A DNA stretch of 46,824 nucleotides from a virus (IMGVR_UViG_3300048582_000269:1-46824), one strand, 5' to 3'. Counted from the stretch's first letter, positions 883 to 23,414 are shown. Program-made: numbers and translations. Notes: generated by a model not told the origin, from the sequence alone.

Positions 883-920
883 CATGTCACTGATTTTCAT
901 TGTTTAACAAAATACATTCG
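883..920 (+). promoter_or_regulatory. Late-promoter-like element, copy 1 (CATGTCAC-N22-TACATTCG)
   Basis: AACCATGTCAC lies directly after the stop of the 338-880 ORF. A -7-like octamer starts 30 nt downstream. The first ATG is at 954. Confidence 0.55.
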
Positions 921-953
921 TATAAAATTTAATAACAATTTAAAAACAGCAAT

Positions 954-1382
954 ATGGCAAATGTAATGTACAATTCGGCTAAAAGAGATTTTTTAAAAGC
1001 CGTTATTAACTGTGAAACCGATACAATAAAAGTGATGCTAGTTGGGGCAGGATACACTTTTGACATTGACGCACATCAAAAACGCTCACATGTTATAGCT
1101 CACGAAATAACAGGAGCAGGCTATACAGCTGGCGGTGTAGCTTTAGCAAACAAAACAGTAACTATTGATACTGACACAGACAAAGCAATTTTTAATGCTG
1201 ATGATCCGGTGATTCCAAACGCAACAATTCCTGGAGCTGTTGGTGCAGTTGTTTATAAATCGAGAGGCGGTGCTGCAAGTGCCGATGAATTGATTTGTTA
1301 CAATCAATTTCCTGAACCTGCATTTAGCACCAACGGAAACTTTGTTATTAACATTGCTCCTATTGGAGTTTTACAATTCTAA
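954..1382 (+). CDS. Hypothetical virion-associated protein
   Basis: 142-aa ORF, first gene after a late-promoter-like element. Gly/Ala/Thr-rich beta-type sequence, located in the fibre-accessory block. Confidence 0.5.
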   Translation: MANVMYNSAKRDFLKAVINCETDTIKVMLVGAGYTFDIDAHQKRSHVIAHEITGAGYTAGGVALANKTVTIDTDTDKAIFNADDPVIPNATIPGAVGAVVYKSRGGAASADELICYNQFPEPAFSTNGNFVINIAPIGVLQF

Positions 1383-1387
1383 CAAAT

Positions 1388-2215
1388 ATGATAACAGATC
1401 CAAAAGATTTACTAAAGGCACTTGGAAATAATTCAAGTAGAGTTTTAATAGACAAGCCTTCGGTAGCTAACCAAACAGCGGGAAATTACACTTCGCTTTG
1501 GCGTGCAACAGGTCAACCCGGTCAAGGAGCCATTCCAACAGCTGCAGCAGTTCCTACTTCTGCGACACTTGGATCTATGCAATTTGCTAATCAAGTAGAA
1601 CCCGCAAAAAGTTATTTTGGATGGGCCGCTTATAATTGTCAAATTGGTGGTAACGCTATTGAAATTCACGACCGCTTGGCACACATGGGAGGTTTACTTT
1701 TAAACTCAACCGCAGTTCAAAATGCAAACATTGACCTTGAAACTTTAGGAGTTGCCGCTGATAGAATTGGTGAGGCAAATTATAGCGATGTAACTTGGTT
1801 TTTAGAGGTGTACGCCGATGGTGGTGCCACAGCCTCCAACGCAACAATCAATGTTACTTATGATGATGGCACCACCGGAAACTTATTGTCGCTTGCTGTT
1901 GGTGGAACATTAAGAACTTCAAGAATGATTCCTTTGGATATTTTAAGACCGGCAGCAGCTTCGGGAAAAAACATTAAGGGAATTAATACAGTTCAAAATT
2001 CCGCGTCCACAGGCACTGCAGGTAACTTTGGATTTACAGCAACCAGACAACGAACAACATTGCCAACACATGTTGCTTTCAAATTTGAAGTAGCAAAATG
2101 GGCAGAAATGGGTTTCCCAAATATTCCAAATGATTCTTGTGTAGTACCTATGATTTTTTGTACTGCTACAACATCAGGAATAGTTAAATTATATGGCAAA
2201 ATAGCACATGGATAG
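1388..2215 (+). CDS. Hypothetical structural protein (fibre-accessory block)
   Basis: 275-aa ORF tightly packed with its neighbours. No catalytic motif seen. Confidence 0.5.
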   Translation: MITDPKDLLKALGNNSSRVLIDKPSVANQTAGNYTSLWRATGQPGQGAIPTAAAVPTSATLGSMQFANQVEPAKSYFGWAAYNCQIGGNAIEIHDRLAHMGGLLLNSTAVQNANIDLETLGVAADRIGEANYSDVTWFLEVYADGGATASNATINVTYDDGTTGNLLSLAVGGTLRTSRMIPLDILRPAAASGKNIKGINTVQNSASTGTAGNFGFTATRQRTTLPTHVAFKFEVAKWAEMGFPNIPNDSCVVPMIFCTATTSGIVKLYGKIAHG

Positions 2216-3056
2216 TTATTTTAAAGGAACAGATTTAATTGATGGCGGTTCTACAATTTGGTTTGAAGAGTCGCCTGCATCTGTTATTTTAATCAATGAC
2301 TTTTTTGAATTAAGCACTATCGTTGATGCAAACGTATCGCTAGAACTTGCCGAAGCAACCATGGAGGTATTGCAAGCAACTGCTTCCGGTTCTGCAAATG
2401 TTTCTGCAACACTAGCAGAAGCTACTTTTGAAGCGTTTCAAGCCACTGCTTCAGGTTCCGCAAATGTGCAAGCCGAACTTGCCGAAGCACTAATTGAAGG
2501 ACTACAAGCAAATGCTTCCGGTTCCGCAATCGTTGCTATTGAAATTGCGGAGGCAATTATTGAAGCTTTGCAAGCAAACGCCATCGGAAATGCCAACGCA
2601 ACACTAGACATTGCCGAAGCTACCTTTGAAGCTTTCCAAATGAACGTTACCATCGAAGGTGGCGTAGAAGTTTTTCTAGAACTGGCAGAAGCTACAATCG
2701 AAGCATTGCAAATGACTGCTTCGGGCGAAGCAAATGTGCAAATGGATTTTGCCGAAGCAACCATTGAAGCATTACAAGCCTCTGCTTCCGGCGATGCAAA
2801 TGTACAAGCAGAAATTGCCGAAGCCTATTTTACCAACGGAACAATCAGGCTTTTTGACCTTTCGCAATTTAAACAGGTAAATGTAGCATCAAAAATTACC
2901 GAAGATTTATTTGTTAGTTCCGTGGTTGGTTCCGGCTTTGCTCGAAGCTCTTCCATTACCACAGAACTTAACGCCTATTCAATTGTTTCAACAGAAATAA
3001 ATGCACAATCAAAAGTTACAACAGCTATTAACTTAACGTTTTTAATCAATGGATAA
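2208..3056 (+). CDS. Tandem-repeat protein (7.5 copies of a 22-aa LAEATxEAxQAxASGSANV unit)
   Basis: 282-aa ORF. The repeat is obvious in both protein and DNA. The start overlaps the upstream ORF by 8 nt. Confidence 0.7.
   Translation: MDSYFKGTDLIDGGSTIWFEESPASVILINDFFELSTIVDANVSLELAEATMEVLQATASGSANVSATLAEATFEAFQATASGSANVQAELAEALIEGLQANASGSAIVAIEIAEAIIEALQANAIGNANATLDIAEATFEAFQMNVTIEGGVEVFLELAEATIEALQMTASGEANVQMDFAEATIEALQASASGDANVQAEIAEAYFTNGTIRLFDLSQFKQVNVASKITEDLFVSSVVGSGFARSSSITTELNAYSIVSTEINAQSKVTTAINLTFLING
2328..2831 (+). repeat. 66-bp in-frame tandem repeat array (about 7.5 units)
   Basis: Consecutive 66-nt units begin gcaaa(c/t)gt... and end ...gcttc(c/a)ggttc(t/c). One unit is 72 nt. 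Confidence 0.9.
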
Positions 3057-3345
3057 AATATATTTAGGTCAGGACTTTCCAATAAACGTGACCATGGAAA
3101 ATATTGCAGATTTGTCGGGAGCGACAGATTTTAAAATACATCGTCGTGACCCGGACGGTATTTTAAAATCAGATTTAAACTTGTCGGTTGTAGATCTATC
3201 GCAAGGTAAACTAGTATTTCTTTCAGTTGCCAAAGAATTTAATATGATTGGCGAGTGGAACTGTTGGACTTCCTATGTCAATGCTCAGGGATTAGACAAA
3301 ATAGGAAGCCCTTTTACTGTAGAAATACACAAGCCGGGAACCTAA
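3049..3345 (+). CDS. Hypothetical small beta-rich protein (possible Ig-like accessory domain)
   Basis: 98-aa ORF that overlaps the upstream stop by 8 nt. It is the last gene of its transcription unit. Confidence 0.5.
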   Translation: MDKIYLGQDFPINVTMENIADLSGATDFKIHRRDPDGILKSDLNLSVVDLSQGKLVFLSVAKEFNMIGEWNCWTSYVNAQGLDKIGSPFTVEIHKPGT

Positions 3346-3351
3346 GTTAAC

Positions 3352-3389
3352 CATGTCACAAACAAGAGCTTTTGTTGGTTGTACTTTCG
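3352..3389 (+). promoter_or_regulatory. Late-promoter-like element, copy 2 (CATGTCAC-N22-TACTTTCG)
   Basis: TTAACCATGTCAC lies 4 nt after the stop of the 3049-3345 ORF. The octamer starts 30 nt downstream. The first ATG is at 3410. Confidence 0.55.
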
Positions 3390-3409
3390 TGTAAAATAAC
3401 TTACACGCT

Positions 3410-3589
3410 ATGGAAGATATGAAAATTTACGGCGGGTTCTTAATAACCTTTCTGTTTACGTTTACAACTGCCGACGCTTTTTTAAAATTTTGTCTGACAG
3501 CAGTTTTCATCGGTTACACCTCCCACAAATGGTATTTGATGTGGCAGGATAGAAAAAACAATAAAGTGAAAAAGGATGAAGAAGATTAA
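3410..3589 (+). CDS. Holin-like small membrane protein (59 aa, below the ORF-track cutoff)
   Basis: Hand translation: MEDMKIYGGFLITFLFTFTTADAFLKFCLTAVFIGYTSHKWYLMWQDRKNNKVKKDEED. It has two hydrophobic segments and a highly charged C-terminus, and is the first ORF of the lysis unit. Confidence 0.45.
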   Translation: MEDMKIYGGFLITFLFTFTTADAFLKFCLTAVFIGYTSHKWYLMWQDRKNNKVKKDEED

Positions 3590-3959
3590 ACATTTTTTAC
3601 AACAGTACGACGGCATTTGGAGCGTTCCATTGGCGTTTATGGGTTTTTGGTTGCTAGGTATCACCTTGCAATTTTTTGACATGAGTGCAGGAAGCTATGA
3701 TATTGCATTCATTCAACCATTAGCATTGGCAATGGCAATAGTTATTGGAGCTACCAATGCAGCGGTTTTAGGATTGTACTTCACATTCCGTGGGATATTT
3801 AGGTTTCTATACGGAAGTCACGACGAATCAGGCAAGCTAATCAACAAATCAAAAGACGAATGGGAAAACTTAACGGCTTTTCAAAAGTTCGGAATATCAT
3901 TTATGGTATTCTTTTATTTTTCATATTTGGTTGTTCACGTATATCTGAAAATGATATAG
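3576..3959 (+). CDS. Three-TMD membrane protein, holin/antiholin candidate
   Basis: 127 aa with three hydrophobic helices. It overlaps the 59-aa ORF by 14 nt and sits immediately upstream of the endolysin. Confidence 0.5.
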   Translation: MKKIKHFLQQYDGIWSVPLAFMGFWLLGITLQFFDMSAGSYDIAFIQPLALAMAIVIGATNAAVLGLYFTFRGIFRFLYGSHDESGKLINKSKDEWENLTAFQKFGISFMVFFYFSYLVVHVYLKMI

Positions 3960-4546
3960 CCAAAGAGCTCGCCGTTAATACAGAAGTAACTTCTGTACTT
4001 AGCGACGTTAGTACAGAACCTCTTGAAACAATTCCTGCACAAGAATCTATTCTTGAAATTGAGGAAGTGGTGCAAGCTCCGGTTCAAATGACCTTGCCCG
4101 AAATCTATCTTTCACAAGTTGGCGTTCGCGAAGCTACCGGAAGAAACGACGGTCCCGAAGTGGAAATGTATTTAAAAGCCGTAAATCTTGGCAAAGGCAA
4201 AGCTTGGTGTTCTGCATTTGTAGCTTGGAGCTTAAATGAAGCTGAGATTCCACACAGAATAAACGCCTGGTCTCCTACTGCCGAAAATAGATCTAATTTT
4301 ATTTACAGAACTCGAAGCTTTGTCAAAGAGCCACAAGCCGGTGATGTTTTTACTATTTGGTATACCAAACTAAAACGCATCGGTCACACAGGCTTTTATC
4401 ATGCCAATCAAAACGAGAGCATCATTATAACAGTTGAAGGAAACACCAACGAAGCAGGAAGTCGAGAAGGTGATGGAGTTTACAAGAAATACCGCAGTTT
4501 GAAAACTATTCACTCCATCAGTCGATGGGAAAAACTACTACCATGA
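3860..4546 (+). CDS. CHAP-domain peptidoglycan hydrolase (endolysin) with a possible lipoprotein signal
   Basis: CHAP-type Cys (KAWCSAFVAW), His (IGHTGFY) and EGNTN motifs. The N-terminus GILLFFIFGCS looks like a lipobox. An alternative start at Met77 (4088) would give the CHAP domain alone. Confidence 0.85.
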   Translation: MGKLNGFSKVRNIIYGILLFFIFGCSRISENDIAKELAVNTEVTSVLSDVSTEPLETIPAQESILEIEEVVQAPVQMTLPEIYLSQVGVREATGRNDGPEVEMYLKAVNLGKGKAWCSAFVAWSLNEAEIPHRINAWSPTAENRSNFIYRTRSFVKEPQAGDVFTIWYTKLKRIGHTGFYHANQNESIIITVEGNTNEAGSREGDGVYKKYRSLKTIHSISRWEKLLP

Positions 4547-5187
4547 AAAAAACAATTTTAATACTTTCAATATTCCTTTTGTTTAGTTGCGGAACCAAAA
4601 CCAAAACTAAAACAGAATCTTCCAGAGAAACCGAATTAAAACAAACGGCAAAAGCTATCGATTCTGCTCAAAAAATCGATTTACTTATTTCTAAAAAAGT
4701 AGAAGAGCGATTAACCGAAATAAGAGAGCAAACCAAAGTCACCGAAAAAACAGATGCAGAAGACAAGACTGTTACCACCACCACAGAAATTCAGGTAGAC
4801 AAGCCGGCAACTATTACGCTGTCCGACGGCCGCGTGTTGAATATTGATACAGGAAGAATTACCGAAACAAAAACAACTACCAATACCAAAAAAGCTACCG
4901 AGAATATTCGGAATAGGAATATTGAAATTTCAGAAAAAGCAGAGAAACAAATTGATGAAACCAATATGCAGATTGACACGAAAAAAATTGTCAAGGAAAT
5001 TTTAACTGAAATAAATACTCAGGAAGTAGATAAAGCTTCAGAGAATATTCAAAAAGGATGGAAGCCAGGCTTTTGGTTTTGGTTCTGGATAGTGTTGATT
5101 ATTTTATTAATCATCGCCTTTTTTGTATTTAGGAAATGGCTCGCAATTCAGTTCCCTTTTCTAAGAGTTTTCAAGATATTCAAATAA
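4543..5187 (+). CDS. Unimolecular-spanin candidate (N-terminal lipoprotein signal plus C-terminal TMD)
   Basis: ATGA start/stop coupling with the endolysin. MKKTILILSIFLLFSCG is a lipobox. The middle is long and charged, rich in Thr/Lys/Glu. The C-terminus has a GFWFWFWIVLIILLIIAFFVF TMD. The ORF track lists a start at 4525. Confidence 0.55.
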   Translation: MKKTILILSIFLLFSCGTKTKTKTESSRETELKQTAKAIDSAQKIDLLISKKVEERLTEIREQTKVTEKTDAEDKTVTTTTEIQVDKPATITLSDGRVLNIDTGRITETKTTTNTKKATENIRNRNIEISEKAEKQIDETNMQIDTKKIVKEILTEINTQEVDKASENIQKGWKPGFWFWFWIVLIILLIIAFFVFRKWLAIQFPFLRVFKIFK

Positions 5188-5208
5188 ACCACCTAGTGTG
5201 GTTTTTTT
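5186..5208 (+). terminator. Rho-independent terminator after the lysis cassette
   Basis: aaaccac-ctagt-gtggttt stem-loop followed by a T-run. Confidence 0.7.
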
Positions 5209-5333
5209 AATGCTTGTTTTTATAGAAAAACCTATTCAATGCAGCTCCTGCAATTATCACAATCACCAATAAAACAATTTCGTACCATTCCATGCTCCAA
5301 ATATAGTAAATCTTTCGATTTCCTTTTAAAAAC

Positions 5334-5371
5334 CATGTCACATAAGGAATTGTACTAATTCATCAACTTCG
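5334..5371 (+). promoter_or_regulatory. Late-promoter-like element, copy 3 (CATGTCAC-N22-CAACTTCG)
   Basis: AAAACCATGTCAC motif. The octamer starts 30 nt downstream. The first ATG is at 5386. Confidence 0.55.
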
Positions 5372-8465: not shown

Positions 8466-9287
8466 ATGTATACAAAAGTAAATTTAACTAAAGCAGCCGG
8501 GATAACTCCCGGTTCTGCTGCCCAAAAGAACCAAATAGTTCTTGTGGACGTGGAAGACATTGCTTCTTTTCCAGACAGTGATGCAAACGGTGTGAAATTG
8601 GTTGGAACTCCTGTTTTAAAGCCAGGAGGTAAATTCATCTCGATTTATTCAACTAAATCGAAAACTGAAGCTCCTTTTGAAACAGATGGAGACGAAGACA
8701 TGATGAACTTTGCAGCAAAATTTATTGCTCAACATCCTGGAAACCGATTAGAAGTAAAAGAGTTTGTTCAAAACTGGACAGGCAGAGACATAATCGTATT
8801 TCACAAGTCTTGTGCCGATGACTTTTGGGAAGTAATGGGAACACCTTGTGCTCCGTTACAATTAAAAGCTAGTAAGCAAGATAACAACGATGGTAGATTT
8901 TATAATCTAACTTTTGAGCCGTTTGCAAAATCAGGATTTGTGCCGAAACATTACGAAGGTGATATTTCATTTACTGAGCCTTTTGCAGTGGTTTCTGTGG
9001 CTGATGTTGATGTGACTCCAGCAAATGGAATTCAGTACAAATTGCCATCATTGGCAGTTACTGATGCAATTGAGTTTGGAGACATGACTGTTGAACACGG
9101 AACGATGATTAGTTTAATTGGTTCCGGCGGTGTTGCTCCTGCTACTTTGGTAGATGGAGTTTCGGGTTCTGCAACTGTTTTATTAAAAACAGGCATCACC
9201 TGGACTGCTTTGAACAACGCTGTAATTCATTTACAAGTTTTCAAAACAGCTGCCACAACTTACTTAATTGAAATGTCTAGAGGGTAG
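8466..9287 (+). CDS. Virion structural protein (head-associated or tail-tube-like), function unknown
   Basis: 273-aa ORF after the capsid gene and followed by a strong terminator. By eye its C-terminal segment resembles the C-terminus of the 719-aa protein. Confidence 0.5.
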   Translation: MYTKVNLTKAAGITPGSAAQKNQIVLVDVEDIASFPDSDANGVKLVGTPVLKPGGKFISIYSTKSKTEAPFETDGDEDMMNFAAKFIAQHPGNRLEVKEFVQNWTGRDIIVFHKSCADDFWEVMGTPCAPLQLKASKQDNNDGRFYNLTFEPFAKSGFVPKHYEGDISFTEPFAVVSVADVDVTPANGIQYKLPSLAVTDAIEFGDMTVEHGTMISLIGSGGVAPATLVDGVSGSATVLLKTGITWTALNNAVIHLQVFKTAATTYLIEMSRG

Positions 9288-9318
9288 TTTTTTTCATAAT
9301 TTTTGAGTTAGTTGAGTG

Positions 9319-9348
9319 AAACCTCCTGAGAAATCGGGAGGTTTTTTT
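9319..9348 (+). terminator. Rho-independent terminator after the head genes
   Basis: aaacctcc...ggaggttt stem followed by a run of 7 T. Confidence 0.8.
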
Positions 9349-9360
9349 ATGCAGTAAAAC

Positions 9361-9398
9361 CATGTCACACGAAACGATGAATGTAATTACCAATTTTG
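9361..9398 (+). promoter_or_regulatory. Late-promoter-like element, copy 4 (CATGTCAC-N22-CAATTTTG)
   Basis: AAAACCATGTCACACGAAAC motif. The octamer starts 30 nt downstream. GTAATTAC palindromes lie at 9383-9390 and 9407-9414. The first ATG is at 9430. Confidence 0.55.
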
Positions 9399-9429
9399 AC
9401 TGTCATGTAATTACTAAAACTATTTTAAA

Positions 9430-10281
9430 ATGAGTAAAAAATTAATAATCATTGCATTTCTGGCATCATTGCCCGAAAGCAAGTATGATCAGTTCAATCA
9501 GGCGTTTGCATTGTACCGAGAATCGGAAAACAAAAACCCCGGATTTGAAACGCGATTAAACCGAGTAGGTTTTTCCGAAGACGGTTTAAAAAACCTTTTG
9601 TATGATTTGCAGAAAATCAACGACATCACCGATTTGGAAGTTGCCAACTACAAAGCTCCGATAACCGAAGAAAAAGGTGTTGAAGTTGTAGAAAATGCTG
9701 AAGGAGAAACAAAAGCTCTTGCTGATGGTCCTGCAAAAGAAAATCCTAACGATGAAAAAGAAATGATTCATATCGAAACGGTTGACGAATCAAAACCTTT
9801 GCGAGAGGAATTCCCGTTCTTAAACAGCCCTGATTGTCCGCAATTGTTGTATGTAGTGGTTGGTAAAAAAATAGCTGCTTTCAAATCGTACCAGGAGAAG
9901 CACGAATTGCTTCAAAAAATTGGTTCAGGAGTGCTACAAGTTACCGAAGATGAGCAATTGGAAATCACTGCAGCAGCCGAGCGAGCTTTCAACGAAAACA
10001 GAGCTTTGTATGATGAATTGAATCATTATGCCACAACAGGCGAAATTTTAGGAAAGCATCCATTATTTCGTGAAACCGAAATAGCTAGAGAGGTTGAAGT
10101 AATGACTAATCAGGAAATGGTAAAGTTCAGAACGGCATCGGCTACCTTCTTCTCCAGAGCAAAAGGCGATTTGATCAAAGCCAAAGGCGACGAGAAGAAG
10201 ATAGCAGCTATTAACGATAAAGTTGCAGAACGCAAATACAAATTGGATTTGGTAAATGCAAAACTAGGTATCAGTGAATAG
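9430..10281 (+). CDS. Hypothetical acidic protein
   Basis: 283-aa ORF, first gene of the packaging unit. No motif recognised. Confidence 0.55.
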   Translation: MSKKLIIIAFLASLPESKYDQFNQAFALYRESENKNPGFETRLNRVGFSEDGLKNLLYDLQKINDITDLEVANYKAPITEEKGVEVVENAEGETKALADGPAKENPNDEKEMIHIETVDESKPLREEFPFLNSPDCPQLLYVVVGKKIAAFKSYQEKHELLQKIGSGVLQVTEDEQLEITAAAERAFNENRALYDELNHYATTGEILGKHPLFRETEIAREVEVMTNQEMVKFRTASATFFSRAKGDLIKAKGDEKKIAAINDKVAERKYKLDLVNAKLGISE

Positions 10282-10864
10282 ATTTTTCAATCCGAAAAAT
10301 GTACCACAAGAAGTAAAGGAAGAAAAACTCGCCGAGCAATGGACCTCAAAATACATTGCCAAGCATTTTCAGAAAGTCAGTTCGTTAGAGCAGGATTTAA
10401 TGAGAATACCAAGTGCGGATGAGTTTTTCTTCCTTCAATCAGATACCGCGTTTAACGCATTTACGTTCATTCCGTTTGTTGCAAAAGTGCATCCAATAAA
10501 ATCATTGTACGCTTCGACCTATTCCATCAGCAACAAAGTAATACAAGCATTGGTAGAACTGCACGATAAAGGAATGATAGAACGCATCACACTGTTAATT
10601 TCCGACAGTATGATCAAGCGGAACCCTCTTACGATTGAAAATTTAAAAGGAATGTGCAGCACTCGTCCAAATATACAAGTGTTGTATGCCTGGAGCCATG
10701 CAAAGGTTTGTTTGATGGAAACACACGATTTTCATTTTGTAGTAGAAGGTTCAGGAAATTGGGCAGAAAACGCACATTACGAACAATACTGTTTTGCCAA
10801 CAGCAAAGGATTGTTTGATTTCAGATTGCAATTGTTTACTAACTCAAAACTCAAAAAATATTAA
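10274..10864 (+). CDS. PLD-family (Nuc-like) HKD-motif protein, putative nuclease
   Basis: SHAKVCLME...VVEGSGNW resembles the HxK(x)4D(x)nGSxN signature. Glu replaces Asp and the spacer is 3 residues longer. Confidence 0.5.
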   Translation: MNRFFNPKNVPQEVKEEKLAEQWTSKYIAKHFQKVSSLEQDLMRIPSADEFFFLQSDTAFNAFTFIPFVAKVHPIKSLYASTYSISNKVIQALVELHDKGMIERITLLISDSMIKRNPLTIENLKGMCSTRPNIQVLYAWSHAKVCLMETHDFHFVVEGSGNWAENAHYEQYCFANSKGLFDFRLQLFTNSKLKKY

Positions 10865-11046
10865 TGAAACCCTACTTTCTATTTGTCGGAATCCTATCCA
10901 TTACTTTGGGTTTTATTATCGGAGTTGGAACGGAAAGCATGTTGCCGGAGCTTGTTCAGGTTCCTGTACTTGTAGCTTTCTGTTTATTGGTTTTCGGAAT
11001 GTATCATTTAATACTCGCCAAAAATGAGCCACCTAATCGAACTTAG
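10864..11046 (+). CDS. Small two-TMD membrane protein
   Basis: 60-aa hydrophobic ORF with ATGA-type coupling to the upstream stop. Confidence 0.4.
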   Translation: MKPYFLFVGILSITLGFIIGVGTESMLPELVQVPVLVAFCLLVFGMYHLILAKNEPPNRT

Positions 11047-11353
11047 ATTTTCAGACGAAGAAATTCAGACTATCATGGATTTGGGAGCGTGTAATTATGC
11101 TCCTTCACAAGTGGCTTTGCAATTGGATTGCAACAAAAAAGCTTTTTTAAAACTATGGAACGATATGGATTCGGACGTTCGGCAAGCCTATGAAGCCGGA
11201 CGATTGAAAGCGAACTTTGGCATTATGAACAAACAGCGAGAATTGGCCGAAAGTGGCAACATTACTGCAGCACAAATATTTTTAAAAGAAAGTAAGGAAA
11301 TTGAAATAGCGGCTATTCGCGATAGAATTTTATTTGGACACGATGTTGATTGA
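11024..11353 (+). CDS. Terminase small subunit-like HTH protein
   Basis: 109 aa with an HTH-like N-terminus and an AYEAGR...GNITAAQIFLKES segment typical of small terminases. Located two genes upstream of TerL. Confidence 0.45.
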   Translation: MSHLIELRFSDEEIQTIMDLGACNYAPSQVALQLDCNKKAFLKLWNDMDSDVRQAYEAGRLKANFGIMNKQRELAESGNITAAQIFLKESKEIEIAAIRDRILFGHDVD

Positions 11354-11972
11354 TAATGTAAACTTAGAAGACATTTACCGTTTCATGGAAACCGGTAACC
11401 CGGACAATGCTCCAGTTGAAATTGTGGCTTATTTGGAAGCTCTCACGCGAGTGCACGGAATGCTTTTAAGAATAGATAAGTTTGGAAGCAGAGAAGCCGT
11501 TATAAAGCACCTCGTGGTTTCAGACAAACTTTCTCGACTCAAAGCTTCGCAATTATGTAGCGAGGCGATTGAATATTTTTATGTAGATAAAGAAGTTTCT
11601 AAAAAAGCCTGGGCAAATTTTTACGCCAATATAGTTGACCAAGAAATTAACTTTCTCCGATTAACCAAAAAAGACGGTCAAGATTCTAAACGAGTAGCAG
11701 AGCTTGCAAAAATTGCAGCCGAAATGCGAGGAGTTTATAATGAAGACAAGGAGGAACTGCCGGCAGAACTCTTCCAAAAACCGGTTGTTATTTACACGAC
11801 CGATATTTCCGATTTAGGTTTGCCAAAAGTAGACCGAAACCGAATTAAAGAAATGATTGATACCAAGTTTGGCCAATTGACTGAAAAAGAACGCCAACGA
11901 CTGTATCAAGAAGCCGACGTAATCCCATTTAAAGCACTACCGAATGAGCAAGAGGACCCGCGTAAATCTTGA
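11334..11972 (+). CDS. Hypothetical protein (packaging module)
   Basis: 212-aa ORF that overlaps both neighbours. Confidence 0.55.
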   Translation: MDTMLIDNVNLEDIYRFMETGNPDNAPVEIVAYLEALTRVHGMLLRIDKFGSREAVIKHLVVSDKLSRLKASQLCSEAIEYFYVDKEVSKKAWANFYANIVDQEINFLRLTKKDGQDSKRVAELAKIAAEMRGVYNEDKEELPAELFQKPVVIYTTDISDLGLPKVDRNRIKEMIDTKFGQLTEKERQRLYQEADVIPFKALPNEQEDPRKS

Positions 11973-13650
11973 TGATAAAGATGTCGATTTGCGATTTGCT
12001 ACGAAGGCAAAAGTGCTAATTGATTTGATTGCTCCACAAAATCTATTCTTCATTGGAGGTAGAGCTACCGCAAAAACATCGGATATCATTGCCGAGCGTT
12101 CCAAAGCAATTATATACGATATGCCTCGTAGTTATCAATTATTTGTTTCTGATACGTATCAAAACGCATTGACCAACGTTCTACCTGCACTAATTGAAGG
12201 ATGGGAACGAAAAGGATGGCGAGAAGGTATTCACTTTGTCACAGATAAGCGTCCGAACTACGGGAAAAACTTTATCATGCCTTATAAACCTGCAATTAGC
12301 TTCAAACATACCATTTCAGTATTTAACGGAACATTTTTCAATTTAGGTTCGCTTGATCAACCATCAGGTTTGGCAGGTTCTTCGTATCAACACAGATACG
12401 GTGACGAAGCCCGATTATTGAAAAAGAAAAAACTAGACCGTTCCTCCCCTGCTTTGCGTGGTGAGTTTGCGAGCTTTGGTCACTCGGTGTACTACATGGG
12501 GAATACATTTACTACCGATATGCCCAATCTAACGCTTGGTGATGACGATTGGATTTTGAATATGGAGAAGGAAATGGATTTGGAGCAAATAGAATTGGCT
12601 TTGCAAGCGGCACTCGTTTTGAATGACATTAAAAGAGAAATGATTGCCAACGAACAAGCGGGAATCATCAGCGAACGAGCACGTTTGGAAAAAGCCTACC
12701 GAAGCTGGAACGAGATTTGGATAAGAGCTCGCAAAGATTCCACTTTCTTTTATGCAGTTTCATCGTTGGTCAATTTAGATATATTGACGGACGGTTATTT
12801 CAAATCGGTTTTAAAAGCTTTGGGACCGGAAGAATTTAAAACGGCTATTCTTTCGTTTAAAATTCAAATTTCTAAAGGCGAAAAGTTTTATTATAACTTG
12901 AGCGATCATCATTATTTTGAAGATGGAGTAGATAATTCCTATTTTGATAGGTTTTCATTGCGTGACGATATTGTTCCCAGTTCGTTATCCTTACGCTACA
13001 TTGATCATAATGCAAAGTTAGAATGTGGTGTTGATTTTGGAGATATGTGTTCGATGGTTGTGGGACAACAGCGAGGCGTTAACTTATACGCATTGAAGGA
13101 GTTTTTTACATTAGCTCCCGAAAATCAGATACATTTAGGATTGAAATTCAGAGAATTTTTCAAGGATCATAAACACAAAGTTCTCGACATGTATTATGAC
13201 CGTTCCGGAAATCAAAATTCTAAAACCAAACGCGATTGGGCATCAGCCATCAAAGAAGCGATAGAATTTCATCACGGCAAGAGCACAGGATGGGTAGTAA
13301 ATTTAATGAGTCAGAATCAAGCCACCATCCTTCAGGAAGAAGAATATAATTTTGCGGGGAAATTGATGTCGGGAAATGTTCCGGGATTGCCACATTTAAA
13401 AATCGACCGTTTTCGTTGCAAACATTTGAAATCGTCGTTGGAGCTTACCAAAACCTTAGTAAAAACAAACAGGCTTGGGTCTAGAACCATACACAAAGAT
13501 AAATCCTCCGAAAAGCTGCCGTTAGAATCACGACCGTTGTATTCAACGAATTTTAGTGATGCTTTTAAATATTGGATTTATCGAGCTTCATTCGTAGATA
13601 AGGCGAATCCTTATTCGGCTTATCAAGGATATGACCCTGGAGTGATATAG
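11944..13650 (+). CDS. terL: Terminase large subunit
   Basis: 568 aa with a deviant Walker A (FIGGRATAKTS) and a Walker B-like YGDEARLL. Size and two-domain layout are typical of TerL. Confidence 0.85.
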   Translation: MSKRTRVNLDDKDVDLRFATKAKVLIDLIAPQNLFFIGGRATAKTSDIIAERSKAIIYDMPRSYQLFVSDTYQNALTNVLPALIEGWERKGWREGIHFVTDKRPNYGKNFIMPYKPAISFKHTISVFNGTFFNLGSLDQPSGLAGSSYQHRYGDEARLLKKKKLDRSSPALRGEFASFGHSVYYMGNTFTTDMPNLTLGDDDWILNMEKEMDLEQIELALQAALVLNDIKREMIANEQAGIISERARLEKAYRSWNEIWIRARKDSTFFYAVSSLVNLDILTDGYFKSVLKALGPEEFKTAILSFKIQISKGEKFYYNLSDHHYFEDGVDNSYFDRFSLRDDIVPSSLSLRYIDHNAKLECGVDFGDMCSMVVGQQRGVNLYALKEFFTLAPENQIHLGLKFREFFKDHKHKVLDMYYDRSGNQNSKTKRDWASAIKEAIEFHHGKSTGWVVNLMSQNQATILQEEEYNFAGKLMSGNVPGLPHLKIDRFRCKHLKSSLELTKTLVKTNRLGSRTIHKDKSSEKLPLESRPLYSTNFSDAFKYWIYRASFVDKANPYSAYQGYDPGVI

Positions 13651-13668: not shown

Positions 13669-13716
13669 CGCCCGTCAGGGCGAAAAAATTTTTATACCCC
13701 TCAATTCGAGGGGTAT
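13669..13716. terminator. Convergent terminator region (two hairpins flanked by A6/T5 runs)
   Basis: Hairpins cgccc-gtca-gggcg and tacccctc-aatt-gaggggta lie between TerL (+) and the 13701-14357 gene (-). The second overlaps the - strand stop codon. Confidence 0.55.
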
Positions 13717-14357
13717 TTCATTATGATGTGCGGAGTTTTTACTTTCCAAAATTGATGATTGATATAAAACGAGAATCGTATATCGGTCATTCGTATAGTG
13801 TCCATACAGTGAACCTCTGACTTAATTTCGTGCATGGCTAAGTTTACTGCGGTCATTTTTGCACACATTGGGTCAAGGTCCTGACACACATAATAATTTC
13901 CTTTGGTGGAATTGTTAAAAGCGAGAACCATTCGACCACTGCCGGAACAGGGTTCATTTATATTCTTTCCCCATTGCCCATCATCAATCATTTTTGCCAT
14001 CATGTCGCAAAGTGCAGGAGGTGTAAAAAACTGTCCTAATGCGGATTTCTTAGATTTAGAAGAAAGAAATTCGTAAAAATCGCCTAGAGGGTCAACCCAG
14101 CGATTTTTTGTTTTGGCTTCGGAATAAATGTTTAAGAGCTCGCCCATCATTTGGGCAAATATATCGAGTTCATCTCGCTTATATTTTTTTATCGTCTGCA
14201 GATAAAGTTCTTCATTTGTTCCGAAGCCAAAACAGCAGATTGTTACTGTTAACAAGTCATCAAATACGGTTATATAATCGTATTTGATACCTAATTTTTG
14301 AAATAGGGAGTCAAATTTCTTTAACTCCCTATTGATGGTTACTGCATCGTTTTTCAT
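13701..14357 (-). CDS. N6-adenine DNA methyltransferase-like protein truncated before catalytic motif IV
   Basis: GQFFTPP (motif X), NEPCSGSGRM (motif I), CQDLDP (motif II) and AVNLAMH (motif III) are present. No (D/N/S)PP(Y/F/W) motif occurs before the stop at 218 aa. Confidence 0.7.
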   Translation of the reverse strand: MKNDAVTINRELKKFDSLFQKLGIKYDYITVFDDLLTVTICCFGFGTNEELYLQTIKKYKRDELDIFAQMMGELLNIYSEAKTKNRWVDPLGDFYEFLSSKSKKSALGQFFTPPALCDMMAKMIDDGQWGKNINEPCSGSGRMVLAFNNSTKGNYYVCQDLDPMCAKMTAVNLAMHEIKSEVHCMDTIRMTDIRFSFYINHQFWKVKTPHIIMKYPSN

Positions 14358-14689
14358 CGCTTTTCAACCTGAGCATTAGAAAATAAATAGCAAAGCGGGT
14401 AAAAGTCGTCTTCCTCCTCTTCTGCGTTGGTTGGTTCTGCGGTTTGTTTGGCTTTTGGTCTTCCCCAAACTAAAAAAGATTGTGAACCTTTTAAAACCTT
14501 GTATCCTTCTGCGTTCCATTGGTGCAGGGTTTTAAATTCTTGGTTTGCTTCATCTGTGTAAAACTCACTAACTAAAACTTCGTTAACGGTCATTCCGTCG
14601 CAATCTGCTGAAATTCTCATTTTTGCAATTTTCGAGAGTTCTCTCAATGCTTTGCGTCTTTCCTTGTGTTTCTCTTGGTTCTCTGTCAT
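14354..14689 (-). CDS. ArdC N-terminal (DUF1738)-like small protein
   Basis: FKTLHQWNAEGYKVLKGSQSFLVWG...FYPLCYLFSNAQV parallels the ArdC-N pattern T.xQ...G..VrKGe...v.W...f..y.VFN..Q. It overlaps the methylase-like gene by 4 nt. Confidence 0.5.
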   Translation of the reverse strand: MTENQEKHKERRKALRELSKIAKMRISADCDGMTVNEVLVSEFYTDEANQEFKTLHQWNAEGYKVLKGSQSFLVWGRPKAKQTAEPTNAEEEEDDFYPLCYLFSNAQVEKR

Positions 14690-14699
14690 GGCTTATAAA

Positions 14700-14885
14700 T
14701 TAGAGTGATAAAATTATTTTTCCGTGTTCAACTTGTACGTTAAGAGTTTGACCGATGTCAAAACCCGCTTTTGCTATCCAGTCGCCCGAAAGGGTTATTT
14801 TTGGCTTGTGGCTTGTCTTAAATTGTGCCTTTGCAAAAATGTAAGACACACGAACGGAGCGATTTTTTTTAATAAACGTACTCAT
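14700..14885 (-). CDS. symE: SymE-family (AbrB/SpoVT-fold) toxin-like protein
   Basis: RSVRVSY...KPKITLSGDWIAKAGFDIGQTLNVQVEHGKIILSL parallels E. coli SymE RQLTVSY...[33 protein letters not shown]. Start chosen at the internal Met. The ORF track extends it to 14987. Confidence 0.75.
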   Translation of the reverse strand: MSTFIKKNRSVRVSYIFAKAQFKTSHKPKITLSGDWIAKAGFDIGQTLNVQVEHGKIILSL

Positions 14886-15090
14886 CGAAATCGCTTTTAG
14901 TGTTGGTTTCTTGAATGAATAACTCTGCAATTGTATGGGCTTTGTTAAATGCCGATTTGGCAAGGCTTTTAAAGTATTGGTAATCATCCCAATTAAAAAG
15001 GAAAGAATAACCTTTTTCGGTTAAAATTTGTCTAACCTGATATGATAATAAATTTGTATTTTTACGGCTGATATTCGTCTGTGTGTTCAT
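14869..15090 (-). CDS. Hypothetical protein overlapping the SymE-like gene start
   Basis: 73-aa ORF whose stop overlaps the SymE-like start by 17 nt. Confidence 0.5.
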   Translation of the reverse strand: MNTQTNISRKNTNLLSYQVRQILTEKGYSFLFNWDDYQYFKSLAKSAFNKAHTIAELFIQETNTKSDFDEYVY

Positions 15091-15110
15091 GGCGGATAAA
15101 ATTTAAGTGT

Positions 15111-15140
15111 AACCCCTACCCTCGACAGTAGGGGTTTTTT
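15111..15140 (+). terminator. Strong hairpin with a T6 tail on the + strand, inside the leftward island
   Basis: aacccctac-cctcgaca-gtaggggtt followed by tttttt. The 9-bp stem lies between two - strand genes. Confidence 0.55.
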
Positions 15141-15146
15141 AATGGT

Positions 15147-15551
15147 TTAGATTTCAAAGGTTAAAACCTCGTTTTGTGCCTCGTTCAATAAAATTGAAAG
15201 TTCCTCTTTTGCGGCTTTTGTCAGTCTGTCAATTACGTTAGAATTTTGTACTTCAAAACTGAAACCCTGTGCATTTTTAAAAACGATTTTTGCGTTTGTT
15301 TTGTCGTTTCCTGCGTGGAAAGTTTTCAACTCGTTTTCTTTTTCCTTTAAAGCGTTGTAACGGGTTGAAAGTGCTTCAAACTGTTTCGCTCTGTTTATTC
15401 GCTCCTCTGCCGTTTTTATGGGTTCGGGTTTGAATTTCTCCATTACTTTCTCCAAAGATTCTTTTTTCTCGTCGATGGCGGTTTTCGTGGTCGTTGTGTT
15501 TGGTAACTCTTTTACCTCTTGCCTTTTTGGCGTGGATGTTTGTGTGTTCAT
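15147..15551 (-). CDS. Hypothetical coiled-coil protein, first gene of the leftward island
   Basis: 134 aa with a Thr/Lys-rich N-terminus and heptad-like charged helices. Confidence 0.55.
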   Translation of the reverse strand: MNTQTSTPKRQEVKELPNTTTTKTAIDEKKESLEKVMEKFKPEPIKTAEERINRAKQFEALSTRYNALKEKENELKTFHAGNDKTNAKIVFKNAQGFSFEVQNSNVIDRLTKAAKEELSILLNEAQNEVLTFEI

Positions 15552-15737: not shown

Positions 15738-15905
15738 CAGTCAAAAACAACAATTTAACCCTCCTTTAAAGGGGGTTTAATTTTGTTTGTATTGACTGAA
15801 ACACCGCCCCGCTCGTTTCTGTTATTGTAATTACGAAAACCCCTGAAATTTGAGATATATGACCGTGAGAGGGCATCCCACCAATAGAGCGGGGTGGCAC
15901 ACCCC
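15738..15905. other. Structured non-coding element: a long AT-rich hairpin followed by a GC-rich stem-loop with an alternative 3' hairpin
   Basis: cagtcaa (15738-15744) pairs with ttgactg (15792-15798) around a tttaaa centre. ccgccccgctc (15804-15814) pairs with gagcggggtgg (15887-15897). Alternatively ggggtg (15891-15896) pairs with cacccc (15900-15905). Confidence 0.4.
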
Positions 15906-15944: not shown

Positions 15945-15982
15945 CATGTCACACCATTTGAGATTACATGTTGCTAAACTTG
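15945..15982 (+). promoter_or_regulatory. Late-promoter-like element, copy 5 (CATGTCAC-N22-TAAACTTG)
   Basis: The octamer starts 30 nt after the motif. The ATG at 16001 is 56 nt from the motif, matching the other copies. Confidence 0.5.
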
Positions 15983-16000
15983 TATCAAATTGGTAATTAC

Positions 16001-16285
16001 ATGAATGATTCTATAACACCAAGCCAAGCGGTTAAAAGAATGCGAGAGCTTACAGAAAATGGAGCACAGTTTTCTTTTTCGTTCATGTCATACAGCTCCA
16101 AGAAGCATTATTGTAGTGGTATCAAGCATGTAGCTAAGGCTCAGTTGCGAAAGGGATATACTAACAGTCAAAGCGAATTATCACGGCAGTTAATAGGGTA
16201 TGTAGATATAGATGCAGGTCACATCAATCGTTTCTTTCACTTACCACTACTGCTTTCATTTAATAACTATCAAATAAAACCATAG
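16001..16285 (+). CDS. Hypothetical protein
   Basis: The ORF track starts at 15968. The Met at 16001 is preferred because 15968 would sit inside the promoter-like element. Confidence 0.5.
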   Translation: MNDSITPSQAVKRMRELTENGAQFSFSFMSYSSKKHYCSGIKHVAKAQLRKGYTNSQSELSRQLIGYVDIDAGHINRFFHLPLLLSFNNYQIKP

Positions 16286-21196: not shown

Positions 21197-21229
21197 ATAT
21201 TTACGGTCTAACACTTAAAAATATACATT

Positions 21230-21448: not shown

Positions 21449-21450
21449 TA

Positions 21451-21475: not shown

Positions 21476-21477
21476 AA

Positions 21478-21876
21478 TTAATCAATCTTTTCAAACGCAT
21501 TCGGGTCAAAACCGCTACCTATATATTGATCATCATCAACCATAATTAAATAATCATGTTGGCGTTTCCATAAAGCTCCGGCATCAACCTCGGTTTTGTC
21601 TTCCAGAACCAATTGGGTTTTGTTTCTATATAAACCATCACACTCGGTTAGTTCCACCAATTCGGGTTGTTCCAGGTTACCTTCCAGATATTGCAAAAAA
21701 GCGGCTTTATCATAATATAAAATCTTACCGGTGCTAAACTTTAGTTGCAATGGATCATAATCTTTCAACCCGGGTTTTTCTGCAATAAACTTGGCAACAT
21801 CTTTAAAACTGCAGTTTTTTAAATGAAGCTTTACACCACCGGTGTACAATACTTCTACTTCTAGCGGTTTAGTCAT
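21478..21876 (-). CDS. Hypothetical protein (second gene of the leftward two-gene island)
   Basis: 132-aa ORF. No motif recognised. It overlaps its partner by 8 nt. Confidence 0.55.
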   Translation of the reverse strand: MTKPLEVEVLYTGGVKLHLKNCSFKDVAKFIAEKPGLKDYDPLQLKFSTGKILYYDKAAFLQYLEGNLEQPELVELTECDGLYRNKTQLVLEDKTEVDAGALWKRQHDYLIMVDDDQYIGSGFDPNAFEKID

Positions 21877-22201
21877 GACGCACCTCCTGACTTTGCAATT
21901 TCAAAATACCTTGTTTAATAATCTCGCTTCCCACTTGCACGGCATGAAAGCTTTCAATTTCTTCAATGTTTTCAAACGCTTGTACAATCTCGTTTAATCT
22001 ACACATGGCGTTACTGTAGTTGCGGCGTTCTTCCACATCGTCAAAAACTTCACTATCCAGTGAAACCAATAAATGATCAATTAAAAAATTTCGGGTTTCT
22101 TTAAGCCCTTGCGGGTCAATTCTTCGGGTTGCTTCCAGCAATTCAATTGCTACATTAGCATGACCACAAAAGGTTGTGGTGTCGTTGTTTTGGTTCTGCA
22201 T
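21869..22201 (-). CDS. Hypothetical acidic helical protein (first gene of the leftward two-gene island)
   Basis: 110-aa ORF. No motif recognised. Confidence 0.55.
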   Translation of the reverse strand: MQNQNNDTTTFCGHANVAIELLEATRRIDPQGLKETRNFLIDHLLVSLDSEVFDDVEERRNYSNAMCRLNEIVQAFENIEEIESFHAVQVGSEIIKQGILKLQSQEVRHD

Positions 22202-22221
22202 GATAAAAATGATTTAAGAAA

Positions 22222-22301
22222 CCTACCCGCAAGCTTGCAGAACCAAAACAATATGATTGTAGTGAATGCTCCGTTTCTCTCGAAGCTTCTTGCGGGATAG
22301 G
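22222..22301 (-). promoter_or_regulatory. Structured 5' leader hairpin of the leftward two-gene island
   Basis: cctacccgcaag (22222-22233) pairs with cttgcgggatagg (22289-22301), giving 12 bp with one bulge. On the - strand RNA the hairpin is followed by a UUUCUU tract. Two -7-like boxes, TACGTTTG and TACCTTTG, lie at 22350-22365 on the - strand. Confidence 0.45.
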
Positions 22302-22437
22302 CTGGATTTTTTACTGTGTGAATTATCATATTACTTAAGTTCTGCACAGCAAACGTACAAAGGTAAAATGTAACTACCAAACAAAATATATGTAAATACA
22401 TAAAGTTCAACTGTTTAGTAAAACAATGTGTAAAATG

Positions 22438-22468
22438 TTTTACTTTTTAGTAAAAATAGTTATATTTG
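22438..22468 (+). promoter_or_regulatory. Operator palindrome TTTTACT-TTTT-AGTAAAA plus -7 box TATATTTG (rightward KilA-N promoter)
   Basis: Palindrome at 22438-22455 and a TAnnTTTG match at 22461-22468. The same palindrome occurs twice in the int-proximal switch region. Confidence 0.55.
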
Positions 22469-22520
22469 TGGTGTAGAAGTCTCACCTACTTTACGATATT
22501 GATTAGCAATAATCACCAAG

Positions 22521-22566
22521 AAACCCTAACAAGTGAGTGAGACCACAAGTTAGGGTTTTCTTTTTA
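22521..22566 (+). terminator. Leader terminator upstream of the KilA-N gene
   Basis: aaaccctaac (22521-22530) pairs with gttagggttt (22549-22558), followed by tcttttt. The loop contains gtgagac, complementary to gtctcac at 22479-22485. Confidence 0.55.
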
Positions 22567-22579
22567 AAACATATATATT

Positions 22580-23215
22580 ATGAGTAAACCGGAATCAAAA
22601 GCATTAGAGTTCATCTATCAAGATGTTCAAATTCATTTTTTATTATCTCAAGGAGATAACGTGATGGTTAACGCTACAGAAATGGCTCAGCTGTTTAATC
22701 AAGAAACAAGATACTTTTTAAGACTTGATTCTACTAAAAATTTCGCAAAAGCAATGTTGAGAGAAAAATTTAATCGTGCAGATTACTCCAATTTTGACCC
22801 TTTTTTTGGTAAAAAGAAACAAAATAACTCAGATAATCGTGCAGAATTGCACGATTATATCAAAGAGAATATTTACTATTCTCAAAAAAAGGGTGGAACT
22901 TACTTATGTAGCGAGTTAGCTCTTAAATTTGCAGCTTGGCTTGACCCTGATTTTGATTTATGGGTACAAAGAACAATATATAGTATATTGTTTAGTGAAT
23001 ATTACATGATTCATAAAAAGAAGGTAATTGAAATTGAAGAAACCAAAAACAAAATCGAACAATTAAAATTTAAAATCAGAAACAAAATAGCTACAGAAAA
23101 CACAGCTATTGAACTGTTAGACTTACAAGATTTACTTTTAAAATTGATGAATGAGAAAAGAAATGCAATTAATAGTCAAGTAAGAAATATTCAATATTCA
23201 TTTTTTGAAGATTAA
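22580..23215 (+). CDS. KilA-N domain protein
   Basis: VNATEMAQLF...FLRLDSTKNF...GGTYLCSELALKFAAWLDPDFDLWV matches the KilA-N/Bro-N pattern. The C-terminus is coiled-coil. Confidence 0.75.
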   Translation: MSKPESKALEFIYQDVQIHFLLSQGDNVMVNATEMAQLFNQETRYFLRLDSTKNFAKAMLREKFNRADYSNFDPFFGKKKQNNSDNRAELHDYIKENIYYSQKKGGTYLCSELALKFAAWLDPDFDLWVQRTIYSILFSEYYMIHKKKVIEIEETKNKIEQLKFKIRNKIATENTAIELLDLQDLLLKLMNEKRNAINSQVRNIQYSFFED

Positions 23216-23280
23216 TCATTTCCTTATTGCACAAAAAATCATTAAAAATTGTGCAATAACAAATATGTGTAAATACACAT

Positions 23281-23320
23281 AACCAGTCATAACCAGTCAT
23301 AACCAGTCAAAACCATTCAA
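23281..23320 (+). repeat. Four tandem 10-bp units (aaccagtcat x2, aaccagtcaa, aaccattcaa)
   Basis: Read directly from the sequence. Preceded by the hairpin ttattgcacaa/ttgtgcaataa (23224-23259) and the palindrome atgtgta-aa-tacacat (23265-23280). Confidence 0.85.
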
Positions 23321-23321
23321 A

Positions 23322-23350
23322 CACTGTCAAATCATGGCAGTGTTTTTTTT
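23322..23350 (+). terminator. Rho-independent terminator
   Basis: cactgtca-aatca-tggcagtg followed by a run of 8 T. Confidence 0.75.
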
Positions 23351-23376
23351 ATTTCATGTAATTACTTACGTTTTCT

Positions 23377-23414
23377 CATGTCACACGAAACCACATAGCT
23401 AAAAATGACCTTTG
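23377..23414 (+). promoter_or_regulatory. Late-promoter-like element, copy 6 (CATGTCAC-N22-GACCTTTG)
   Basis: The 15-mer CATGTCACACGAAAC is identical to copy 4. The octamer starts 30 nt downstream. The tape-measure ATG is at 23431. Confidence 0.55.

Follow-up and report, generated by a model that had tools for sequence, protein, structure and literature searches.

Several phages are known in which one phage-encoded factor serves several promoters that lack the upstream host element, as with MotA/AsiA of T4, Ogr of P2 and C of Mu. In P2 and Mu, late promoters with poor -35 elements are switched on by one small phage protein. Bacteroidota transcription relies on an atypical primary sigma factor and a -33/-7 promoter design, and late-gene timing in the temperate phages of this phylum is essentially undescribed. 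Here we analyzed a viral DNA of 46,824 nucleotides (nt), IMGVR_UViG_3300048582_000269 (the window, meaning the whole stretch), which contains six copies of a bipartite element: a box, CATGTCAC, followed at a fixed distance by an octamer resembling the Bacteroidota -7 box. The elements are very probably promoters, and the reader of the box is likely to be encoded by the phage. On balance we favor the view that they form a late promoter class of one Bacteroidota siphophage lineage, namely the Duneviridae and relatives sharing a protease-capsid-terminase-portal module, with the product of a gene at 338-880 as the likeliest reader. Relative to the described systems, this would be a late promoter class fitted to the Bacteroidota -33/-7 polymerase and found in phages of at least four host genera, and its reader may come from a protein family without a known fold.

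Exact copies of CATGTCAC begin at 883, 3352, 5334, 9361, 15945 and 23377, all on the plus strand and none on the minus strand. Dinucleotide-preserving shuffles contained 0.96 copies on average, and six or more were reached in 0 of 100. All six copies lie in the gaps between the main open reading frames (ORFs), which make up about 6% of the window. An octamer starts exactly 22 nt after each copy (in copy order, TACATTCG, TACTTTCG, CAACTTCG, CAATTTTG, TAAACTTG and GACCTTTG); taken together they conform to nAnnyTyG, a degenerate version of the Bacteroidota -7 box. Four copies share AACCATGTCAC, and those at 9361 and 23377 share CATGTCACACGAAAC. The distances from element to start codon are 71, 58, 52, 69, 56 and 54 nt in the same order, with the first start of the lysis block corrected to 3410, that of a gene for a 59-residue (aa) membrane protein, and the first ATG of the portal block corrected to 16001, not 15968. 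An earlier reading of this DNA made from the sequence alone (the sequence-only reading) had given these positions, their strand and intergenic location, the octamers at a fixed distance and the shared extensions, and the exact-match count and the ORF map agree with it throughout; its range of 52 to 71 nt to the first ATG holds with the two corrected starts.

A position-weight matrix covering the two conserved parts was derived from 11 sites in the window and in the Flavobacterium phage vB_FspS_laban6-1 (laban6-1). It scored the six window sites at 22.8 to 26.4 bits and the next best position at only 10.4 bits, showing that the window has no partial or hidden copies. Rfam and tRNA scans of the window gave no matches, and a generic sigma-70 promoter scan, which is uninformative for this phylum, gave 53 sites versus 54.7 expected. 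The predicted promoters are as follows.

883-920, plus strand: predicted late promoter 1, CATGTCACT-N21-TACATTCG, predicted start at about 925
3352-3389, plus strand: predicted late promoter 2, CATGTCACA-N21-TACTTTCG, predicted start at about 3394
5334-5371, plus strand: predicted late promoter 3, CATGTCACA-N21-CAACTTCG, predicted start at about 5376
9361-9398, plus strand: predicted late promoter 4, CATGTCACA-N21-CAATTTTG, predicted start at about 9403
15945-15982, plus strand: predicted late promoter 5, CATGTCACA-N21-TAAACTTG, predicted start at about 15987
23377-23414, plus strand: predicted late promoter 6, CATGTCACA-N21-GACCTTTG, predicted start at about 23419

Promoter 1, whose box begins 2 nt past the stop codon of gene 338-880 and which is identical in the close relatives L039-L042, heads four genes of unknown function (954-3345), called "fibre-accessory" by the sequence-only reading. 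Promoter 2 heads the lysis block, with the 59-aa membrane protein at 3410 and an endolysin (3860-4546), and promoter 3 the head block, with an S49 protease at 5386, a 719-aa capsid-like protein and a 273-aa protein. The packaging block (9430-13650), in which the large terminase gene is last, follows promoter 4; the portal/head-completion block, with its first ATG at 16001, follows promoter 5; and the tail block, from the tape-measure gene at 23431 through genes to 32175, follows promoter 6. A copy had been said to head every rightward block; this is so for these six, but the matrix scan found none for a fibre-like block extending from 42373 past the window ends as far as 880.

The window represents all or nearly all of the genome of a temperate siphophage of Flavobacterium type. 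Its genes include those for a tyrosine integrase (32167-33405), a divergent repressor/cro-like pair, a primase, the endolysin, the S49 head protease, the large terminase and the tape-measure protein. By terminase identity, its closest cultured relatives (Duneviridae) are laban6-1 (74%), the Flavobacterium psychrophilum 6H group (50%) and Cellulophaga phage Ingeline (46%). The late module also has remoter relatives: Bacteroides phage BT-TP2, a gut phage that carries a reverse-transcriptase gene, Porphyromonas gingivalis prophages and the "Microcystis" phage Mea-Yong924-1. A megablast search of the window against phages gave only one 190-nt match.

The bipartite design and its spacing are kept in these relatives, where the sequence-only reading had suggested looking for them. 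In laban6-1, YATGTCACA-N21-octamer is found at five orthologous positions (lysis, head, packaging, portal and tail), with spacers of the same length as in the window and of unrelated sequence; as a pattern of sequence conservation this is a classic phylogenetic footprint. The laban6-1 ortholog of promoter 2 is at 32739, upstream of holin, and that of promoter 5, with the same TAAACTTG box, at 19193. Promoter 4 has orthologs in laban6-1 (26976), in 6H and in the related contigs L003, L005, L006, L007 and L011, and promoter 6 in laban6-1 (10124), Ingeline (4560), BT-TP2 (25811) and the Porphyromonas phage (26214). Orthologs of promoter 3, the head-protease promoter, occur at 15 related loci, each with its own lineage-specific box: CATGTCACA, CATGTTACA, CATGATACA/T, CATGTCTTAAA or CCTGTCACA. 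The distance from box to -7 box is unchanged across these variants. A further upstream-box variant among the lineages is nnTGTCCTTTT. Even very distant phages retain the register, with nnTGTCCT followed by 22 nt and a -7 box at five sites in Ingeline, five in Mea-Yong924-1 (as GCTGTCCT), three in BT-TP2 and three to four in Porphyromonas phage026a. A census of 17 relatives, comprising genomes and partial contigs and counting only sites with a strict -7 box (the Porphyromonas phage was examined separately), gave 45 sites, 40 with an N22 spacer and 5 with N21; all five N21 sites belong to the CATGTCTT class. A register-based k-mer motif search was dominated by AT-rich words and was usable only with 7-mers. 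Judged from its spread over phages of Flavobacterium, Cellulophaga, Bacteroides and Porphyromonas, this promoter architecture is old.

Box variants change in concert within a genome. L003 and L005 each have CATGTTACA three times, L006 has CATGATACA three times and the 6H phage has CATGTCTT four times; set against CATGTCAC, the contrasting classes are CATGTCTT and CATGTTAC (6H and L003). That the promoters of one genome nearly always share one box variant argues for a phage-encoded factor. Positions 3 and 4 of the 8-mer are TG in nearly all variants; the one exception noticed, AACTTCACA, is located downstream of the gene in L008 that belongs to the same family as 338-880. Mixed variants occur in L007, with CATGTTACT, CATGATACT and CATGTTACT at 569, 2207 and 6256, and in L016, where CATGTCCTA stands beside CATGTCTTA at about 3038; box positions 5 to 7 are thus seemingly read less strictly than T3 and G4. 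In Mea-Yong924-1 (L038, MZ447863.1), acacGCTGTCCTtttt-N22 promoters were found at 13088, 17597, 19632, 23769 and 28689. Their -7 boxes are of the Bacteroidota type, the phage has its late module and a LuxR-type regulator in common with flavobacterial phages, and its recorded host, Microcystis, looks like a doubtful assignment in view of these sequences.

The architecture of the sites was compared with that of known promoter classes. In F. psychrophilum, the sigma-A -7 box TAnnTTTG occupies -12 to -5 (PMC9723704). In this register the predicted starts fall 42 nt after the first base of the box, so that the box would span -42 to -34; A is found at the predicted +1 in all but one of the six sites, and the distance of the octamers to the start codons is compatible with a -7 role. 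Relative to TAnnTTTG, the octamers begin with TA in three cases and end with TTTG in two and with TTCG in three. The host -33 TTTG is missing 17 to 21 nt upstream of the -7 box at all six sites, in line with the earlier proposal that the box takes its place; the -33 region reads CACTGATT, CACAAACA, CACATAAG, CACACGAA, CACACCAT and CACACGAA. The phage's own early rightward promoter (33909) has a canonical TACATTTG box.

Extracytoplasmic function (ECF) promoters have an AAC-containing -35 and a CGT-containing -10 element about 16 to 17 nt apart (PMC9723704). In the window, AAC precedes the box at four of the six sites, 36 nt from the CG of the octamer, and CGT is present at three. Sigma-54 promoters follow the design TGGCAC-N5-TTGC (-24/-12). 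The sites here have TGTCAC without the GG, no TTGC 5 nt further on, and a conserved partner 22 nt away. Pfam scans covering the ORFs of the early region and most of the others gave no Sigma70 domains. The conserved part of the box consists of nine contiguous, asymmetric positions, and its flanks have no second half-site of a LuxR/GerE-type dyad (about 16 to 20 bp). The asymmetric box in place of the upstream host element, its rigid register, its position ahead of every lysis and morphogenesis block, at times just past a terminator, and its concerted, lineage-specific variation would be expected if the promoters depend on a phage-encoded specificity factor docked on the host polymerase.

A mechanism consistent with these features can be proposed. 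Host sigma-A is assumed to read the weakened -7 box nAnnyTyG, while a phage-encoded protein would bind the 9-bp box (CATGTCACA in the window phage) that replaces the -33 TTTG and would recruit or remodel host RNA polymerase in the manner of a class II activator or of the sigma appropriation known from T4 middle promoters. The lysis, head, packaging, portal and tail blocks would thereby be switched on, each restarting transcription, in some cases just past a terminator. The likeliest reader would be the 338-880 product, a LuxR-type protein encoded at 34233-34790 being a weaker candidate or an earlier step in a cascade. The sequences directly show the motif with its statistics, conservation, register and concerted variation, whereas promoter activity, late timing and the identity of the factor are what we infer.

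Strong terminators composed of a hairpin and a T-run directly precede only promoters 4 and 6. Of the three copies that the sequence-only reading placed just past terminators, those at 9361 and 23377 are indeed so located, but the terminator preceding the copy at 5334 is 130 nt away.

9318-9349, plus strand: intrinsic terminator ending the head block; 12-bp stem, -19.6 kcal/mol (hairpin 9318-9345), T-run; 12 nt before promoter 4
23319-23351, plus strand: intrinsic terminator; 11-bp stem (hairpin 23319-23345), then T8; about 26 nt before promoter 6
5186-5211, plus strand: intrinsic terminator ending the lysis block; hairpin 5186-5204; 130 nt upstream of the copy at 5334

Among described systems, T4 middle promoters offer a close parallel. 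In both cases the host downstream element is kept, an asymmetric box of about 9 bp at a constant distance takes the place of the upstream one, the promoters are numerous and dispersed over the genome, and specificity is conferred by a phage-encoded factor, which for the window is our inference. In contrast to the T4 MotA box at -30, however, the box here lies at -42 to -34, no MotA/AsiA homolog was found by Pfam or PHROG among the window proteins scanned, the polymerase is of the Bacteroidota -33/-7 type and the phage is temperate. By analogy, the shared trait supports a system that works like MotA/AsiA, not membership in that class. As with P2 Ogr/Delta and Mu C, four to six late promoters with one upstream element each head a morphogenetic or lysis operon, and the Cys cluster of the LuxR-like protein superficially resembles the Ogr zinc finger. 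Both P2 and Mu, in contrast, use dyads, centered near -55 in P2 (TGT-N12-ACA) and overlapping -35 at the Mu C site, whereas the box here is asymmetric; no sequence or fold similarity was found. The position of gene 338-880 immediately before the first late promoter recalls lambda Q and pR', and in laban6-1 and 6H the order is that of lambda: candidate gene, first late promoter, then lysis genes. Unlike lambda, with one late promoter and terminator read-through, this phage would have six restarts, two of them directly behind terminators, and a Foldseek search with the model of the 338-880 product gave no match, to Q or otherwise. RinA, ArpU and LtrC of Gram-positive siphophages are likewise small phage activators of late morphogenesis and lysis genes, but they are sigma-region-4-like proteins that act at a single late promoter upstream of terS, and no homology to them was detected here. 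Lastly, the -7-like octamer lies at a distance from the start codons compatible with Bacteroidota sigma-A promoters, from which the elements differ by lacking TTTG 17 to 21 nt upstream and by a degenerate -7 box.

Two genes of the window are candidates for the reader of the box.

338-880, plus strand: gene for a 180-aa protein (phrog_21888, function unknown), leading candidate reader of the box
34233-34790, plus strand: gene for a regulator of 185 aa that combines a Cys-rich N-domain with a C-terminal helix-turn-helix of GerE/LuxR type (HTH; Pfam GerE, residues 125-179)

The 180-aa family follows the promoters across lineages. Of seven promoter-bearing lineages, six have a firmly identified member and one a weak match, and in most of 24 loci checked no more than about 20 nt separate the first box from the stop codon of the family gene, or the two overlap. 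Members are present in laban6-1 and 6H; Ingeline gp41 belongs to the family (hhalign expect value [E] 1e-4), as does the protein encoded at 10087-10560 in Porphyromonas phage026a (hidden Markov model [HMM] 3e-7; hhalign probability 80%, E 1.5e-5). BT-TP2 gp8 is 41% identical to the latter (E 2e-49), and its homology to the family was established only through this Porphyromonas protein, since direct profile comparison was weak (E 0.05) and jackhmmer from gp8 gave no matches. Bacteroides phage Versailles, which lacks these promoters, has no family member. In the AlphaFold2 model of the 180-aa protein (predicted local distance difference test [pLDDT] 83), the N-domain is alpha/beta, the C-domain is helical and the tail is basic. 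Its distribution makes 338-880 a better fit than the LuxR-type protein, on circumstantial evidence, and we consider the 180-aa family a tentative candidate, at somewhat less than an even chance of being the reader. More speculatively, and with a lower probability that we would call doubtful, this family (338-880, BT-TP2 gp8 and phage026a 10087-10560) could be an unrecognized kind of initiation factor, with a fold without known match, that replaces -33 recognition and whose specificity has diversified by lineage. Such a factor would bind the asymmetric TG-centered box (-42 to -34) and, docked on the unusual RNA polymerase of the Bacteroidota, would sit at a rigidly set distance from sigma-A region 2.

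Several observations weigh against this assignment or against the promoter reading as a whole. The 180-aa protein has no recognizable DNA-binding fold and no PDB, Pfam, NCBIfam or functional PHROG match. The Mea-Yong protein (8977-9450) matches the family weakly (HMM 5.6e-6, hhalign E 0.018), and linkage of the gene to the late module alone could suffice to explain its co-occurrence with the promoters. The Ingeline member sits within a block driven by such a promoter, a placement that complicates a simple model in which the reader is made first. The candidate gene itself is part of the fibre-like block 42373-880; this block lacks a promoter of the class and instead seems to carry a putative repressor-type operator. 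Finally, a literature search on late promoters of Flavobacterium and Bacteroidetes phages found these promoters not to be described; the laban6-1 and Ingeline papers say nothing of promoters, and the Ingeline paper just calls the LuxR gene a quorum-sensing-type regulator.

The sequence-only reading proposed a phage-specific late promoter class read by a dedicated factor and named the LuxR-type protein as the obvious one. The promoter class is backed by orthologous sites, a fixed register and concerted box change; the named reader fared less well. We regard it as unlikely that the 34233-34790 protein activates the six promoters by binding CATGTCAC with its C-terminal HTH. It has the sole recognizable HTH of the early rightward operon besides the CI/Cro pair, its gene directly follows the cro-like gene in laban6-1, 6H, Ingeline and Mea-Yong, all promoter-bearing (five lineages with the window), its residues aligned with the NarL base contacts (Q158, A159 and N162) are the variable ones of the family, and LuxR-type activators typically act from about -42. 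However, the promoter-bearing BT-TP2 and Porphyromonas phage026a lack the protein and Versailles has it with a different late module and no such promoters, showing that the promoters travel with the late module and not with the CI-Cro-LuxR switch module. Moreover, in 10 regulator-box pairs the recognition-helix residues aligned with the NarL contacts are not sorted by box variant and give no consistent code, the box is asymmetric in contrast to the dyads usually bound by GerE/LuxR dimers, and the gene is second in the early operon, which provides no obvious delay. The protein is therefore a second choice, or possibly an upstream step in a cascade. The probability that is left to readers other than the two candidates includes a host factor, either an alternative sigma or a conserved Bacteroidota regulator, with the phage controlling its availability or relieving repression. 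A variant, TGTCCTTT, common to phages of Cellulophaga, Bacteroides, Porphyromonas and an unknown host would be understandable on this basis, and none of the phage proteins found in all lineages has a proven DNA-binding fold. We nevertheless find a host reader improbable, because at least five box variants, nearly always one per genome, occur among phages of the single genus Flavobacterium, the architecture fits neither ECF nor sigma-54 promoters, and a constitutive host reader would cause the lysis genes to be expressed in lysogens.

That the elements are not promoters at all, and serve as RNA processing or antitermination sites or are bound by packaging or replication proteins, appears very improbable. 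The elements are known from sequence alone, and no Rfam family or tRNA explains the regions, both of which count for such a role. Against it stand the rigid 22-nt register to a host-type -7 box at 40 of 45 sites in very divergent phages, the placement 52 to 71 nt before the first start codon of each block, the location downstream of terminators and not upstream, and spacers whose lack of sequence conservation implies no conserved RNA structure. A late promoter class with a phage-encoded reader remains our preferred reading.

The AlphaFold2 model of the 185-aa LuxR-type protein (pLDDT 89.9) has a four-helix GerE/NarL-type C-domain matching DosR, LiaR and GerE, with target-normalized template modeling scores near 0.8, and no sigma region 2; the protein is not a sigma factor. 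Its N-domain is novel, and in its loop-rich part C78, C102, C108 and C115 are invariant across 58 homologs, which suggests a putative metal site (zinc or iron-sulfur) that might gate activity. Homologs occur in prophages of many Flavobacteriales; a scan of GTDB species-representative genomes gave 23 prophages with the regulator, in three of which the 10-kb flank reached the first late promoter. Between the window and L003, the two candidate readers are 55% and 61% identical, compared with 70 to 81% for structural proteins, and this faster divergence of both does not discriminate between them. Use of the N-domain of the 42373 protein as a search anchor returned only three loci.

Two other proteins were considered as readers and set aside. 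A small conserved protein of 109 aa (11024-11353) has no recognizable domain, sits inside a late block and is more likely a small terminase subunit, and a KilA-N protein (22580-23215) is not conserved in relatives.

Further repeats may represent regulatory sites. The palindrome GTAATTAC occurs five times, always between genes, and five or more copies were reached in 0 of 100 shuffles.

9383-9414, no strand assigned: pair of GTAATTAC palindromes (9383-9390 and 9407-9414) bracketing the -7 box of promoter 4

The other copies are at 15827-15834, 15993-16000 and 23358-23365, and the palindrome is often found as TGTAATTAC/ATGTAATTAC. Copies flank the -7 box on both sides at the packaging and portal promoters, and one is found a short way upstream of the tail promoter. 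The palindrome is kept in laban6-1 and other relatives, and the 6H group has a TTGCAC/GTGCAA-type sequence instead. From this placement, GTAATTAC is probably a site for a second regulator of three of the six late promoters.

Another sequence, ACTTTTTAGTA, is part of the inverted repeat TTTTACTttttAGTAAAA and is found twice in the lysogeny switch region (33855-33865 and 33887-33897), once or twice ahead of the KilA-N gene (22442-22452, and 22410 with one mismatch) and once ahead of the fibre-like block (42311-42321). By sequence, these sites look like candidate repressor/Cro operators. If they are operators, the fibre block, in which the 180-aa candidate gene is last, would be under control of the switch and not of a CATGTCAC promoter. 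The 506 nt from 41867 to 42372 are non-coding, with a strong terminator at the start (about 41893-41915) and dense TGTAAT/ATTACA repeats; an origin, a pac region or a regulatory role are possible functions.

The late region is broken by two islands. One (13701-15551, minus strand), partly common to laban6-1 and 6H, has genes for an N6-adenine methyltransferase, an ArdC-N-like protein and a SymE-type toxin, and the other (21478-23215) for two small unknown proteins and the KilA-N protein; both look like moron or anti-defense cargo. In the early region, a 959-aa primase-like protein (35075-37954) closely resembles BT-TP2 gp6 (E 9e-184) and has no detectable counterpart in laban6-1 or 6H, indicating that this region is mosaic relative to the late module.

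The analysis provides a defined cis-element with at least 40 instances, a fixed register, natural specificity variants and two candidate genes for its reader. The class spans phages of a fish pathogen (the F. psychrophilum 6H group), of marine flavobacteria and of gut Bacteroides, as well as P. gingivalis prophages; the motif could therefore improve the annotation of late operons. Pairs of box and factor could serve as orthogonal, inducible expression tools in Bacteroidota. If the 180-aa family does prove to be an initiation factor, these phages would hold a natural set of orthogonal promoter/factor pairs for the phylum.

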